A stretch of DNA of 64,000 bases, from NCBI GenBank assembly GCA_040389385.1, contig JAZKAA010000003.1, forward strand, positions 39,295-103,294, given 5' to 3'. A model generated the notes under the pieces. That model was not told the DNA's origin and ran no database searches. It was given only the letters and a program-made list of their open reading frames with translations. Below are positions 21,650 to 40,824 of the stretch, piece by piece. The DNA comes from Patescibacteria group bacterium (GTDB taxonomy: Bacteria; Patescibacteriota; Minisyncoccia; Phycocordibacterales; SBAW01). The position numbers and the translations under genes were made by a program. How positions within the stretch are numbered: the stretch's first letter is position 1; every line of letters starts with the position of its first letter.

Positions 21650-21674
21650 TTCGACATGACTCACCACAAGTAAC

Positions 21675-38002: not shown

Positions 38003-38629
38003 TTAGTGAGAGAGCACCACAACCTCGACCTCTTTACCCTCCAAATCTTTTCTCTTGACCGTCAGCTTGTCCTCCGGCTTGGTGCCCTCGGCGCCCGCCT
38101 CTTTAAGAAATGCCTTGAGCTGCGCCGCGTCGTAGTGCATCGGCACCACCACTTTTGGCTCGAGTTTGACCGACAGCTTGTACGCCTCGGCGGCGCCGAG
38201 TGTGGCAAGCGGCACAAACAGCACGTCTATGTCGTCGAGCTCTTGCTTGGCCGCCGCGGGCACATCGCCTGTTTGCGCGCCCAAAAAGGCCAAGTTCATC
38301 CCCTCTAGGGTTACGCCGTAGACGGTATTTATTTTTTGCTCGCCGTCGTACGGCACCGTGTTGCCAAAGCCGCGCACTTGCACGCCCTTTATCTCGTACT
38401 CGCCCGGGCCCTCGACAACAAACGGCTCGCGCTCGCCAAAGGCGGCGTTTTCTACCCCCGCAAAGTCGTCGTGATGCATGCTCACAAGGGCGATATCGGC
38501 GCCAAATTTAGTCGCCGCAATGGAGGAGTCTTTGGACGGGGGGTTGTACGCAATGGTCAAATCACCCTGCGTGATTTTGAAGCATTCACCGCCCTGGTAA
38601 CTGATCACCATATGGCTTAATTCTAGCAT
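38003..38629 (-). CDS. metallo-beta-lactamase-fold-like hydrolase family protein
   Basis: 208 aa; ALVSMHHDDFAG and later histidines, consistent with an MBL-fold metal site; weak. Confidence 0.5.
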   Translation of the reverse strand: MLELSHMVISYQGGECFKITQGDLTIAYNPPSKDSSIAATKFGADIALVSMHHDDFAGVENAAFGEREPFVVEGPGEYEIKGVQVRGFGNTVPYDGEQKINTVYGVTLEGMNLAFLGAQTGDVPAAAKQELDDIDVLFVPLATLGAAEAYKLSVKLEPKVVVPMHYDAAQLKAFLKEAGAEGTKPEDKLTVKRKDLEGKEVEVVVLSH

Positions 38630-38683
38630 ATTTCAGCCATTTTTGCTACCATAAAAACATCGCAGTTTAGTAGGAGTTCTTCG

Positions 38684-38866
38684 ATGGCTGACAAGCATGG
38701 CGCAGTCACTAAAAAGACGGCAGCGGAGCAGCGCCGAACGCAACATGCCAAAGACCAGGTGCGCAAGCTCCCTCCTCACGCCTCTGTGGTTTCCGCGCGC
38801 CGTTGTGGTAGCCCAAGCTTGGGCCATATCCCCCTCCGGCCCTTTAGCGGCCTCGATAAGAAGTAG
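38684..38866 (+). CDS. candidate small hydrophilic protein (60 aa) followed by an intrinsic terminator
   Basis: AGGAG RBS 9 nt upstream of ATG (MADKHGAVTKKTAAEQRRTQHAKDQVRK...); terminator at 38867-38898. Confidence 0.3.
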   Translation: MADKHGAVTKKTAAEQRRTQHAKDQVRKLPPHASVVSARRCGSPSLGHIPLRPFSGLDKK

Positions 38867-38898
38867 CCCCAGCAACGCTGGGGTATTTTTTTACCCTG
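38867..38898 (+). terminator. rho-independent terminator (CCCCAGC-aacg-GCTGGGG + TATTTTTTT)
   Basis: Read directly. Confidence 0.6.
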
Positions 38899-38914
38899 AG
38901 CCTGTCGAAGGGTT
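38892..38914. promoter_or_regulatory. copy A of the 23-nt motif TACCCTGAGCCTGTCGAAGGGTT (inverted repeat ACCCT-N11-AGGGT), 12 nt upstream of the -35 of a TTGACT-N17-TAGGAT promoter (38927-38955)
   Basis: Read directly; second copy at 39328-39350. Confidence 0.5.
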
Positions 38915-39058
38915 GTCCCGTATTAATTGACTTTTCAGGCAAGGCGGGTTAGGATGGAGGCACGTTCGGGCGAAAGACCGCGAGGTCCAGTACCACCTAT
39001 GAGGTGGTATTTCGTTTGTGACGGGGAGATCATTAATTTACGAGGGGACAGTACCAAT

Positions 39059-39266
39059 GCAAAGTTGGGAACTCGGAATATCGCAGAGGATGCAACGGCA
39101 CGGTGGCAGCAACAAGGCACCGGCCAAGAAGCAGCTCTACAAGAGCGACTTGATCGAGGTCGAGCCTCGCACAACCGACACCAACCCTGGTGACGGTCGC
39201 AAGCACATCTACGACGGCGCCTACGCGGCGTACCAGCATCATCAGTCGCAACAAGCGACGGTCTGA
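39059..39266 (+). CDS. candidate small hydrophilic protein (69 aa, MQSWELGISQRMQRHGGSNK...)
   Basis: GAGGGG RBS upstream; the upstream in-frame ATG (39018) lies in the 3-nt loop of an 8-bp hairpin TACCACCT-atg-AGGTGGTA; followed by the terminator at 39297-39326. Confidence 0.35.
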
Positions 39267-39296
39267 TTCCGAGGGAGGAATCGCCCCACCCACAAG

Positions 39297-39326
39297 CCCG
39301 ACCAACACTGTTGGCGGGTTTTTTAT
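39297..39326 (+). terminator. rho-independent terminator (CCCGACCAACA-ctg-TGTTGGCGGG + TTTTTTATTT)
   Basis: Read directly. Confidence 0.6.
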
Positions 39327-39327
39327 T

Positions 39328-39350
39328 TACCCTGAGCTTGTCGAAGGGTT
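39328..39350. promoter_or_regulatory. copy B of the 23-nt motif TACCCTGAGCTTGTCGAAGGGTT, 14 nt upstream of the -35 of a TTGACA-N16-TACTGT promoter (39365-39392)
   Basis: 22/23 identical to copy A; same terminator / motif / promoter order. Confidence 0.5.
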
Positions 39351-39392
39351 TGTGCACAGCGGCGTTGACAGGTTTTCTGCAAGCGCTACTGT

Positions 39393-39620
39393 TACCTTGC
39401 ACACCCCGCGGCCCCTGTCCAAGGTTCGTCCTGGATGACACAGTGGAGCGGAAGATGGTGATGCGAACCTGGAGAACGGTCATGAAAATGACTATCGCGC
39501 GCGTCTCGGCTCACGACGGATCCTAAGTCAGGGTCGTCGTTGAGCTGATGCTTTGCTGGGCTCGGAAGAGCCTTACTATCGGCCCCCGGTGATTCGTCAC
39601 CGGGGGTTGAATCTTTTTAT
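39393..39620 (+). ncRNA. candidate ~225-nt non-coding transcript or long leader between promoter B and a strong hairpin + T-tract (39583-39618) upstream of rpsA
   Basis: No convincing ORF (the 71-aa ORF 39311..39526 looks non-protein-like); ends with CCCCCGGTGA-ttcg-TCACCGGGGG then TTGAATCTTTTT. No tmRNA, RNase P or SRP signature motifs recognised by eye. Confidence 0.25.
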
Positions 39621-39634
39621 ATACCGTGTATAGT
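39607..39634 (+). promoter_or_regulatory. putative rpsA promoter TTGAAT-N16-TATAGT immediately 3' of the hairpin
   Basis: Read directly; 89-nt leader to the rpsA ATG at 39724. Confidence 0.4.
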
Positions 39635-39723
39635 GCCTATCAATAAGAAGCCTCGTGCTTTTTATTAACCGGCTCGGTGTTAATCCTGGCATTTAGCTAG
39701 AGCGCCGACCAACAACCAAATAA

Positions 39724-40824
39724 ATGTCTAAAGAAGCTGAACAAGTTGATATTGATGTACCTGCATCCGTGATGCAGGCCTTTGCCGAGCAGGCACAGGA
39801 GGTCCCGCGCGAGGGCGAGATAGTCGAGGGCAAGGTTTTGGCCTTGGACCGCGCACGGCTCTACATCGACCTGCCGCCGTGGGGCACGGGCATTATCTAC
39901 GGACGCGAGTATATGGCCGCCCGCGAGGTCATCAAGCGCACCAATGTCGGCGATATTATCGCCGCCAAAATAATCTCCACCAATACCAAAGACGGCTACA
40001 TCGAGCTCTCGCTCAAAGAGGCGCGCCAGGCCGCCACATGGGCGCAGGCCGAGGAGATACTCAAGAGCAAGGCTTTGCTCGAGCTGGTTATCAAAGAGGC
40101 AAACAAGGGCGGGCTTATTATCGAGTGGCAGGGTCTGAGTGGCTTTCTCCCCGCGTCGCAGCTCAAGGCCGAGCACTACCCGCGCGTAGCCGACGGCGAC
40201 AAGGACAAAATACAAGTCGAGTTGCGCAAACTGGTCGGGACTAAAATTCCGGTCTCGGTAATCGGCGTCAGTCCGAAGGAAGGCAAACTAATATTTAGCG
40301 AAAAGGGCGTTGATGATAAAGAAAAGCAGGAGCTCATACAAAATTACAATGTCGGCGACACCGTTACCGGCGAAGTTACGGGCATGGTTGACTTTGGCGT
40401 CTTTGTTAAGTTGGAAGAGGGCTTGGAGGGCCTCGTGCACATAAGCGAAATTGACTGGGGCTTGGTAGATGACCCGCGCCACTTCTTTAAGGTGGGCGAA
40501 AAGCTCAAGGTTAAGATAATTGATATAAAAGAGGGCAAGATAAGTCTGTCTGTGAAGCAGCTCAAGGACAACCCGTGGCAGGTCGCAAGCGAAAAGTATC
40601 ACAAGGGCGACAAAGTCGAGGGCGTGGTGATTAAATTTAACAAGCACGGCGCGCTCGCCTCTATCGAGGAGGGCATCGCAGGGCTTATCCACGTCAGCGA
40701 GTTTGGCACCGAGGAGGGTCTGCGCCGCAACCTCTCGCTCGGCAGCCGCTACCCGTTTACAATCTCGTTGTTTGACCCCAAGGAAATGCGCATGGCACTC
40801 TCCTACACCGGCGACAAGAAATAG
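39724..40824 (+). CDS. rpsA: 30S ribosomal protein S1 (compact four-S1-domain form)
   Basis: 366 aa; repeated S1 OB-fold motifs (GEIVEGKV..., GDTVTGEVTGMVDFGVFVKL, GDKVEGVVIKFNKHGALASI). Confidence 0.9.
   Translation: MSKEAEQVDIDVPASVMQAFAEQAQEVPREGEIVEGKVLALDRARLYIDLPPWGTGIIYGREYMAAREVIKRTNVGDIIAAKIISTNTKDGYIELSLKEARQAATWAQAEEILKSKALLELVIKEANKGGLIIEWQGLSGFLPASQLKAEHYPRVADGDKDKIQVELRKLVGTKIPVSVIGVSPKEGKLIFSEKGVDDKEKQELIQNYNVGDTVTGEVTGMVDFGVFVKLEEGLEGLVHISEIDWGLVDDPRHFFKVGEKLKVKIIDIKEGKISLSVKQLKDNPWQVASEKYHKGDKVEGVVIKFNKHGALASIEEGIAGLIHVSEFGTEEGLRRNLSLGSRYPFTISLFDPKEMRMALSYTGDKK

Follow-up and report, generated by a model that had tools for sequence, protein, structure and literature searches.

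A 23-nt motif repeated upstream of rpsA in a Patescibacteria group bacterium is probably a solo REP-like DNA hairpin of a family that brackets small GIY-YIG nuclease genes

REP repeats are spread by RAYT (Y1) transposases. Class-I activator sites, e.g. that of CRP, which is centred at -61.5, are another type of short element found near promoters. The Ssn single-strand DNA nucleases are encoded by genes flanked by SRM/NTS repeats (Chenal et al., Nat Commun 2025, PMC11893778). Binding of the hairpin by an Ssn nuclease is restricted to single-stranded DNA, and cleavage takes place just upstream of the tag; SsnA cuts single-stranded DNA beside its hairpin, is inactive on double-stranded DNA or RNA, does not bind RNA, and depends crucially on the GTC tag for cleavage of its NTS (PMC11893778). 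In Neisseria, NTS repeats (dRS3) bracket genes and modulate the recombination of incoming DNA (PMC11893778). CGTC-tagged REPs have an 8-9-bp stem starting with A-T and T-A, a 4-5-nt loop and a CCA tail, and were reported without a dedicated transposase; for REPs that follow genes, a role at the RNA level has been proposed (Di Nocera et al., BMC Genomics 2013, PMC3733652).

The window analysed here is a stretch of 64,000 nt (64 kb) from a Patescibacteria group bacterium. Its region upstream of rpsA had been described, in an initial annotation, as a duplicated cassette of terminator, palindromic 23-nt motif and promoter. The repeated motif itself was confirmed: TACCCTGAGCYTGTCGAAGGGTT occurs in exactly two copies in the window, at 38892-38914 and 39328-39350 of the + strand. 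The scan with the 23-mer tolerated up to 3 mismatches, shuffled sequences predict 0 matches, and even at 3 mismatches no third copy was found in the 64-kb window. A looser scan of the window for the core yielded no extra copy having a convincing stem. The elements of the region are the following.

38684-38866, + strand: unit 0, an orphan ORF of 60 aa with AGGAG upstream (38672-38676)
38866-38892, + strand: intrinsic terminator A, a GC stem (38866-38884) and a run of seven T (38886-38892)
38893-38913, + strand: hairpin repeat copy A, ACCC-TGAGCCTGTCGAA-GGGT, solo, with TTT instead of the 5' GTC tag
38927-38955, + strand: promoter-like site A, TTGACT-N17-TAGGAT, with 9 of 12 consensus matches; passes the promoter scan
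38989-39020, + strand: leader hairpin AGTACCACC-TAT-GAGGTGGTAT followed by TTTCGTTTGTG, between promoter A and the 69-aa ORF
39057-39266, + strand: unit A, a hydrophilic orphan ORF of 69 aa with GAGGGGA upstream (39042-39048)
39294-39328, + strand: intrinsic terminator B, a bulged stem (core 39296-39318) and TTTTTTATTT (39319-39328)
39329-39349, + strand: hairpin repeat copy B, ACCC-TGAGCTTGTCGAA-GGGT, solo, without the 5' GTC tag
39365-39392, + strand: promoter-like site B, TTGACA-N16-TACTGT, with a weak -10 box
39396-39622, + strand: unit C, a structured RNA candidate of ~225 nt that ends in terminator C
39579-39620, + strand: terminator C, a stem (39579-39610; -27.2 kcal/mol, z -6.0) and CTTTTTAT (39613-39620)
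39607-39634, + strand: promoter-like site of rpsA, TTGAAT-N16-TATAGT; passes the scan and overlaps the 3' side of terminator C
39724-40824, + strand: rpsA, encoding ribosomal protein S1 (366 aa) with S1 domains (PF00575)

Both motif copies have the same orientation and share the core ACCC-TGAGCYTGTCGAA-GGGT with the inverted repeat ACCC-N13-GGGT. Their placement next to terminators held up as well: both directly abut T-tracts, the junctions being TTTTTTT/ACCC for copy A and TTATTT/ACCC for copy B (the four bases preceding the core are TTTT and ATTT), and the adjoining terminator hairpins fold well (-14.2 kcal/mol, z -3.8 for terminator A and -15.8 kcal/mol, z -4.4 for terminator B). The described gap of 12-14 nt between the motif and the -35 box proved correct, with 12 and 14 nt at the two sites. 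Relative to both inferred transcription starts the motif spans about -48 to -73 and is centred at ~-59/-60. In their position relative to the -10 box the copies differ by 1 nt, and a phase argument against an activator was dropped on this account. A promoter inside the motif was also considered and rejected, as an acceptable hexamer pair was absent by eye. The notion of a duplicated cassette was not upheld. Only the motif is repeated, and apart from it and from the generic G-rich stem and T-tract, the flanking terminators and promoters are unlike in shuffle tests (the upstream alignment was equalled by 14 of 500 shuffles, the downstream alignment by 500 of 500).

The data support the view that the region is a string of three small independent units, each with a promoter-like site and an intrinsic terminator, which agrees with the series of small units proposed before. 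The terminators at 38866-38892, 39294-39328 and 39579-39620 all consist of a G+C-rich hairpin followed by a T-tract, as is characteristic of intrinsic terminators. In a 3.5-kb stretch the number of terminator-like sites was above chance (10 vs 4.1 expected), and that of promoter-like sites, taken as a class, was not (3 vs 1.8). Both proposed promoter pairs are present; site A passes the scan, but in site B the -10 box matches the consensus at 3 of 6 positions only and the site is below the threshold. Judging from its consensus match and its position between a terminator and an SD-preceded ORF, site A may function as a promoter.

The products of the three small transcription units are lineage-specific. 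Among 5.8 billion proteins the sole match of the 60-aa ORF was itself ('hypothetical protein V4474_01020, Patescibacteria group bacterium'), and its codon score was ambiguous (10th percentile of real-gene segments, with 9% of off-frame segments as high). The 69-aa ORF, which was called as a gene on Logan contig L001, matched only itself among 1.84 billion representative proteins; its codon score of 0.30 lies at the 32nd percentile of real-gene segments and is equalled by just 3% of off-frame segments, making its codon usage plausibly gene-like. A Pfam search with these two ORFs gave no match. Unit C has a predicted fold of -101.4 kcal/mol (z -4.9; none of 200 shuffles was as good) and contains a possible 23-aa ORF (39455-39526, GGAG at 39445-39448) with an ambiguous codon score. 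By eye the region had been judged to match none of tmRNA, RNase P, SRP and 6S RNA, and the Rfam/Infernal searches found no match to any known RNA family: at the gathering threshold 13 tRNAs and nothing else were found over the window, and at E<=10 the best score between 38500 and 39800 was 21 bits, compared to a gathering threshold of 39, and reflected merely the terminator. Ten repeat-bearing loci had no Rfam match either.

Syntenic relatives carry similar small units between the gene of an MBL-fold hydrolase and rpsA, and a hairpin with a T-run is found past their promoters at a position matching that of the leader hairpin. The small genes and units at this position differ in sequence among the relatives. 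Units 0, A and C showed no nucleotide homology to them beyond the promoter-B stretch, and the proposed check for conservation of the 60- and 69-aa ORFs yielded no homologues besides the ORFs themselves. Over 38 nt promoter B shares 76% of its bases with L003:915-952 (E 0.07), and on the basis of this alignment the L003 promoter is probably orthologous to promoter B; it has no hairpin repeat upstream. The motif was not found in the corresponding intergenic region of three relatives, L002, L003 and L005 (S1 83% identical). The best matches of the rpsA product come from Paceibacteria, Adlerbacteria and Nomurabacteria, and the TATAGT/TATATT box and the leader of rpsA are conserved in the relatives. 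Since rpsA has its own promoter-like site and conserved leader and the units upstream differ between relatives, the suggestion of a nested attenuation system feeding into S1 was not retained.

The motif was found to be widespread in other bacteria. Among the matches listed, the exact 21-mer ACCCTGAGCYTGTCGAAGGGT is present in more than 120 genome contigs from more than 20 phyla, compared to a chance expectation, by arithmetic, of ~0.5 matches in 596 Gb. The hosts belong to Nitrospirota, Planctomycetes, Chloroflexi, Bacteroidota, Acidobacteria, Clostridia, Alpha-, Beta- and Gammaproteobacteria, Spirochaetota, Omnitrophota, Dependentiae and several CPR lineages. The 17-mer core was present in more than 120 viral contigs among the matches listed. 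The hairpin family with the TGAGC loop is present in nearly all bacterial phyla, and the two window copies are members of it. Many family copies are solo or paired, and they are intergenic. In BLAST searches a typical doublet was present in annotated plasmids of Moraxella, Sphingobium, Comamonas and Methylobacter, where it was always unannotated, and was absent from annotated phage records. The hairpin is presumably familiar as the spurious peptides PELVEG, LSLSKG and FDKLR of genome annotations; in the window, ORFs over the hairpin read ...YPEPVEG... and ...YPELVEG.... A full-text literature search with nucleotide strings and their translated peptides gave nothing relevant.

The family consensus is (T/C)GTC-A-NN-C-TGAGC-N3-4-TCGAA-G-N'N'-T. 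Across the family the 13-14-nt 'loop' is conserved and the short 4-nt stem covaries. At least three flanking bases are paired in 85 of 98 loop copies, which were not chosen by CC/GG flanks, and the stems were highly varied, among them ATGC/GCAT, ATGG/CCAT, GTGC/GCAC and AGGC/GCCT. Position -1/+1 pairs in 124 of 133 copies, as CG, TA or TG. Genome-wide, NTC precedes 116 of 142 copies, and the TTT junction of both window copies just 3 of 142.

The initial annotation had interpreted the motif as a class-I activator site or UP element defining a regulon. In this interpretation the two copies, perhaps as repeat copies that had been co-opted, would co-regulate two of the small units and possibly further genes. 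The span of the motif, its common orientation and short distance to the -35 boxes, the almost constant centre and the inverted repeat (see above) all fit such a role. However, more than 20 phyla have the same 21-mer, in unrelated contexts as well as at the ends of GIY-YIG cassettes (see below), and in the family the 'half-sites' vary and the 'spacer' is conserved, which is the reverse of what selection by a dimeric DNA-binding protein would produce. The motif is G+C-rich and not A/T-rich, unlike an UP element. It recurs at no other promoter of the 64 kb, although dozens must be present there, and is missing at the locus in three relatives, including the position before the probable L003 orthologue of promoter B. 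Promoters of this lineage lie ~5-30 nt past the preceding terminator; insertion of 21 nt at a T-tract boundary would therefore yield equal geometry and would explain the constant distance more simply. Taking these observations together, we consider a regulatory site improbable and no longer regard the motif as the mark of a regulon, although co-option may be compatible with the geometry alone.

A lead to the function of the family came from its neighbourhood. When ORFs around the hairpin were clustered, viral loci were dominated by phage structural genes, and the genome loci alone pointed to a GIY-YIG protein; no Y1 transposase family emerged from the clustering of neighbouring ORFs. Among 120 genome loci selected by the hairpin, a GIY-YIG gene was right beside it in four (L229, L161, L203 and L137). 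In a reciprocal approach 80 metagenomic loci were picked solely by similarity to the ~95-aa GIY-YIG protein (PF01541). Within the 173 kb of these loci the 13-mer occurred 140 times at <=1 mismatch, where ~0.2 copies were expected. The generalised core was upstream of the gene in 62 and at the stop codon in 54 of the 80 loci, and inverted hairpins were present at both gene ends in 50; a TGAGC-type core was found in 71 loci and the published SRM pattern in only two. Beside the GIY-YIG genes the individual positions of the 5' tag T-G-T-C-A are conserved at 77-95%. Loop class and protein similarity go together (the observed value was attained in 0 of 1000 permutations). The structures closest to the associated proteins are those of UPF0213 (1ZG2, 1YWL), and the identity to B. 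subtilis YazA is 47%. GIY-YIG relatives encoded in viral contigs had no hairpins, so the association applies to cellular gene copies. These results show that hairpins of the family form the terminal inverted repeats of ~400-bp cassettes encoding ~95-aa single-domain GIY-YIG nucleases.

With SRM/NTS repeats the family shares a short hairpin, an orientation set by a non-palindromic 5' tag, (T/C)GTC-A, inverted copies around a ~95-aa single-domain GIY-YIG gene (in the family, not in the window), and many solo and paired intergenic copies across phyla. SRMs described in the literature have an equal tag, HGTCW (PMC11893778). The window copies have the hairpin of an SRM (an inverted repeat of 20-50 nt, here with the ACCC/GGGT stem) but lack the 5' HGTC(W) tag that the family as a whole possesses, and a nuclease gene is not nearby: no GIY-YIG ORF was found within the 64-kb window or at the loci of the relatives. 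The present family also differs from SRMs in its TGAGC...TCGAA core, and its proteins, which may or may not belong to the Ssn clade proper (cd10448), look closest to UPF0213/YazA. The SRM pattern HGTCWYN(0-2)YYVSBRHN(0-5)WNVSBRGN(0-2)RNCYNB matched an NTS control and failed on the window copies, on canonical family copies and on the whole window.

The likeness to CGTC-tagged REPs lies in the family tag (CGTC, TGTC or CCTC, then A), the mostly intergenic location, the frequent head-to-head dimers and the occurrence in several phyla. The window copies do not carry the tag, and the family does not conform to the CGTC-REP description: a perfect 4-bp stem surrounds a conserved 13-nt segment, the second pair is C-G and the CCA tail is absent. 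A sequence matching the motif was not found in the text of PMC3733652. As in REP/REPIN-RAYT systems, there are short palindromes, often as inverted doublets, the gene of a cognate enzyme is flanked by repeats, and non-autonomous copies are intergenic. The family nevertheless falls outside this class, being without GTAG at either end and having a GIY-YIG neighbour instead of a Y1 (HUH) transposase; moreover, REPINs are lineage-specific, whereas the present 21-mer is identical across phyla.

The hairpin might also act in RNA, as was proposed for REPs 3' of genes (PMC3733652), by forming a second hairpin on read-through transcripts and thus serving as backup terminator or protecting 3' ends. It is located 0-1 nt past the T-tract of the terminator and on the strand that is transcribed in all three units, and inspection of the sequence suggests that additional pairs might form within the 'loop' (U-A, tandem G.A/A.G, G-C) and that one strand would then be favoured. 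But little read-through is expected with strong terminators, no T-tract follows the hairpin, and the hairpin alone is weak as RNA (-5.8 kcal/mol, z -0.6 and -1.1). Nor does SsnA bind RNA (PMC11893778). The orientation of family copies relative to upstream genes is unbiased by crude gene calls (65 vs 63), which fits a DNA-level element, though it proves nothing. Of the explanations considered, we find this one hardly credible.

The copies are part of 35-nt direct repeats (T-tract plus hairpin, 38880-38914 and 39316-39350), which are 89% identical, lie exactly 436 nt apart and bracket one complete small unit. This arrangement would be expected if the hairpins were recombination or insertion sites between which a 436-bp segment with promoter A, the 69-aa ORF and terminator B had been captured. 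The lack of homologues of the 69-aa ORF, the presence of other small genes at this position in relatives and the rare TTT junction common to both copies are in line with such a capture, as is the precedent of the Neisseria NTS repeats (PMC11893778). On the other hand, within the repeat the T-tract is ordinary terminator sequence, and terminators A and B have different stems. The sole difference between the copies, C/T, is at the sole position that is polymorphic family-wide (49 vs 56 copies), which fits independent copies equally well as local duplication, and a circular or empty-site form was not observed. Capture appears unlikely.

We consider it most probable (at roughly 0.7) that both 23-nt motifs are solo copies of the REP-like DNA hairpin repeat, and that the two are passengers and not activator sites. 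Solo and doublet copies would be recognised, and mobilised or maintained, by such a GIY-YIG nuclease, much as REPs are by RAYT transposases, and the repeats would act at the DNA level, not as transcription-factor sites. The two tag-less copies would occupy a harmless slot between the terminator T-tract of one small gene and the promoter of the next, most likely with little or no effect on the expression of the neighbouring units.

Some features of the window copies run counter to this explanation. They are tag-less, and in SsnA the GTC tag is crucial for action on NTS; their TTT junction is rare. The lack of a GIY-YIG ORF in the 64-kb window and at the relatives' loci, the failure of the SRM pattern on the hairpin and the nearness of the associated proteins to UPF0213 also count against it. 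Their shared -59/-60 position and contact with the T-tract are more regular than two random landings. This regular placement leaves room for a target-site preference, for local copying of the 35-nt T-tract-plus-hairpin, or for co-option.

A bolder reading seems doubtful to us: the family would be the most widespread, hitherto overlooked class of nuclease-associated repeats, its tag-less TTT variant would insert at terminator T-tracts, and the copies would mark the capture of orphan mini-genes and drive the turnover of small genes upstream of rpsA. It has in its background a 21-mer that is kept identical across more than 20 phyla and would be paired with GIY-YIG proteins resembling UPF0213/YazA, and a captured mini-gene cassette that would consist of promoter, 69-aa ORF and terminator.

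On the preferred explanation, that of passenger hairpin repeats, what was tempting to read as a regulatory motif in 'activator position' is a copy of a repeat, and three ordinary small units remain in the region. The hairpin is tied to small GIY-YIG genes in the way REPs are tied to RAYTs and NTS repeats to SsnA. The Ssn/SRM idea is extended to a hairpin class that is missed by the published search pattern, annotators gain a masking rule for hairpin repeats, and a function is suggested for UPF0213-like proteins.

The motif noted in the initial annotation lies in a 1.1-kb gap separating an MBL-fold hydrolase gene from rpsA, with the following features in and around it.

38003-38629, minus strand: MBL-fold hydrolase gene (PF13483), divergent from rpsA
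38892-38914: 23-mer copy A
38989-39020: leader hairpin, then TTT(T)GTTG (in relatives, L002:3143-3170, L005:3570-3595 and L003:546-570)
39328-39350: 23-mer copy B
39396-39622: unit C, ~225 nt from promoter-like site B to terminator C
39455-39526: possible 23-aa ORF in unit C, with GGAG seven nt upstream
39579-39610: third terminator, overlapped by the rpsA promoter-like site
39635-39723: rpsA 5' leader (in relatives, L002:3900-4000 and L003:1330-1424)
39724-40824: rpsA (S1 protein)

Gene order in this stretch (gyrA, 89-aa gene, hydrolase, gap, rpsA) is shared with relatives whose S1 is 83% identical, and the best S1 matches are MAGs of Paceibacteria, Adlerbacteria and Nomurabacteria (one NCBI match is 100% identical). 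The 23-mer TACCCTGAGCYTGTCGAAGGGTT is indeed present twice; no further copy was found in the window even with three mismatches, and none is expected by chance. Each copy is directly preceded, without a gap, by a good intrinsic terminator and followed 12 or 14 nt downstream by a -35-like hexamer; site B has a weak -10 box, TACTGT. The third terminator was also found as described. The description of the motif sites was accurate, that of a duplicated cassette was not: beyond the motif and the generic terminator end, the flanks are no more alike than shuffled sequence.

Because we took the motif core to be one known from spurious peptides in annotations, public sequence collections were searched. 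The 17-mer CCTGAGCYTGTCGAAGG matched at least 120 viral contigs and the exact 21-mer ACCCTGAGCYTGTCGAAGGGT at least 120 genome contigs, about 0.5 chance matches to the latter being expected in 596 Gb by our own arithmetic. Among the matches listed, hosts of the 21-mer belong to more than 20 phyla, several CPR lineages included. Comparison of the flanks revealed a hairpin, in which a 13-nt centre, TGAGCYTGTCGAA, is constant and 4-nt arms vary in complementary fashion, ACCC/GGGT being just one of many pairs (also ATGC/GCAT, ATGG/CCAT, GTGC/GCAC and others). Among 98 copies collected without regard to their arms, 85 pair at least three flanking bases, and inverted doublets are frequent. Plasmids of Moraxella, Sphingobium, Comamonas and Methylobacter carry family copies that lack annotation. 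No Rfam family matched the motif or the hairpin repeat, nor did any family other than tRNA reach the gathering threshold in the whole 64-kb window; a full-text literature search gave no occurrence of the hairpin sequence. The window has 13 tRNA genes, single or paired, scattered over both strands. At locus L209 (minus strand, ~7655) a hairpin copy separates a tRNA-Ile(GAU) gene from a TATAAT-like box, and its GGGT arm doubles as the first bases of the acceptor stem. A possible degenerate copy in the window, TGAGTCATGTCGAA at 21650-21663 on the minus strand, has four flanking pairs rich in G-U and is more probably a coincidence.

Clustering of the ORFs near genome copies showed a ~95-aa GIY-YIG protein closely bracketed by inverted hairpins in two loci, and an HMM made from the protein family gave two further bracketed loci. 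In the reverse test, the 13-mer occurred 140 times in the 173 kb of 80 metagenomic loci taken solely for encoding a relative of this protein, where chance would give about 0.2. With a generalised core, which takes in variants such as TGAGCGGAGTCGAA, a copy was found upstream of the start in 62 of the 80 loci, an inverted copy at the stop in 54, and copies at both gene ends in 50. The 5' tag TGTC-A is strongly conserved on hairpins adjoining GIY-YIG genes, and the loop variant correlates with protein similarity; shared ancestry could account for part of this correlation. No hairpin repeats flank the phage homologues (viral contigs L246-L250; E 1e-23 to 1e-26 against the family HMM). One GIY-YIG gene (L137:3978-4347), interrupted by an in-frame stop, retains flanking TGAGC-type hairpins and appears to be a copy in decay.

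CGTC-tagged REPs lacking a dedicated transposase have been reported from several phyla (Di Nocera et al., PMC3733652), and hairpin repeats bearing a CGTC tag (NTS/SRM) were shown on either side of the small single-domain GIY-YIG proteins termed Ssn, cd10448 (Chenal et al. 2025, PMC11893778). The Ssn enzyme of N. meningitidis cleaves upstream of the hairpin that it binds, and does so solely in single-stranded DNA, with neither dsDNA nor RNA as substrate (PMC11893778). The architecture of gene and flanking hairpins is identical in kind here and the tag equals the published one, but the TGAGC-type hairpin sequence is distinct and fails the published degenerate search pattern, which matches 2 of the 80 GIY-YIG loci versus 71 for the TGAGC-type core. 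The hairpin-linked proteins are nearest to UPF0213 structures and B. subtilis YazA. A GIY-YIG gene of S. meliloti pSymB (L350, 1664692-1664982), 44% identical to the query, carries on both sides CCTC-ATCCCTGTG-CTCG-TCACAGGGAT-CCA repeats, which are NTS-like (CCTC-ATCCCTGTG...CACAGGGAT-CCA) and belong to the CGTC-type REPs reported as without transposase (PMC3733652); both hairpin types thus occur with one protein family. In three genome loci (L146, L153, L209) NTS-like repeats GTCATTCCCGCGnAGGCGGGAATCC, of the published SRM type, lie tens of bases from TGAGC-type hairpins, so that the two classes coexist in one genome. The motif is best read as an Ssn/SRM-type hairpin repeat with links to nuclease genes.

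Copies A and B share one orientation, are solo and lack the GTC tag; ahead of them stands TTT, a junction seen in only 3 of 142 copies genome-wide. No GIY-YIG ORF was found in the 64-kb window or in the relatives' loci, and the hydrolase-rpsA gap of three relatives has no motif copy, not even ahead of the stretch that matches promoter B at 76% identity (E 0.07) and, judged by this similarity, is probably orthologous to it. Together with the conserved centre and variable arms, these observations argue against a site for a dimeric transcription factor; what the initial annotation observed is confirmed, its regulatory interpretation is not. Both motif copies centre about -59/-60 from the inferred transcription starts. 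Promoters in this lineage sit just behind the preceding terminator, so a 21-nt insertion at the edge of a T-tract would yield this geometry without selection, and the geometry does not discriminate between the readings. The regular placement after a T-tract does need explanation. Candidate explanations are that a CPR-type variant prefers TTT targets, that a 35-nt segment of T-tract plus hairpin was copied locally, or that copies survive in harmless slots only. A minority reading, that the two copies mark a captured cassette, draws on their bracketing one complete small unit. Most likely, the two tag-less solo copies are passengers.

The 60-aa ORF (unit 0), with a good SD, is annotated as a hypothetical protein, "Patescibacteria group bacterium". 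The proposed conservation check found no homologue for it in 5.8 billion proteins or for the 69-aa ORF (unit A) in 1.84 billion, and neither has a Pfam match; codon usage is gene-like for the latter and ambiguous for the former. In the relatives, the same gap holds other small hydrophilic ORFs, equipped with near-consensus promoters and terminators; it thus looks like a place of fast turnover of short genes. The leader hairpin, about 30-45 nt downstream of the promoter and 40-60 nt ahead of the start codon in the window and three relatives, looks like a shared attenuator-like leader despite the unrelated ORFs. Unit C is far more stably folded than its shuffles (-101 kcal/mol, z -4.9), with no match in Rfam or nucleotide homologue in the relatives; it could be a small RNA specific to the lineage, or carry the 23-aa ORF. 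Nested attenuation into S1 found no support, rpsA having its own promoter-like site and leader blocks conserved in relatives (CTTTATTAAYYG ... TAATC ... CAT/ATTA...); with a small stem showing some compensatory changes between relatives, this leader could be an S1 autoregulatory element in this lineage. The locus itself is ordinary; it is the link of a ubiquitous hairpin to UPF0213-like GIY-YIG genes that deserves follow-up.
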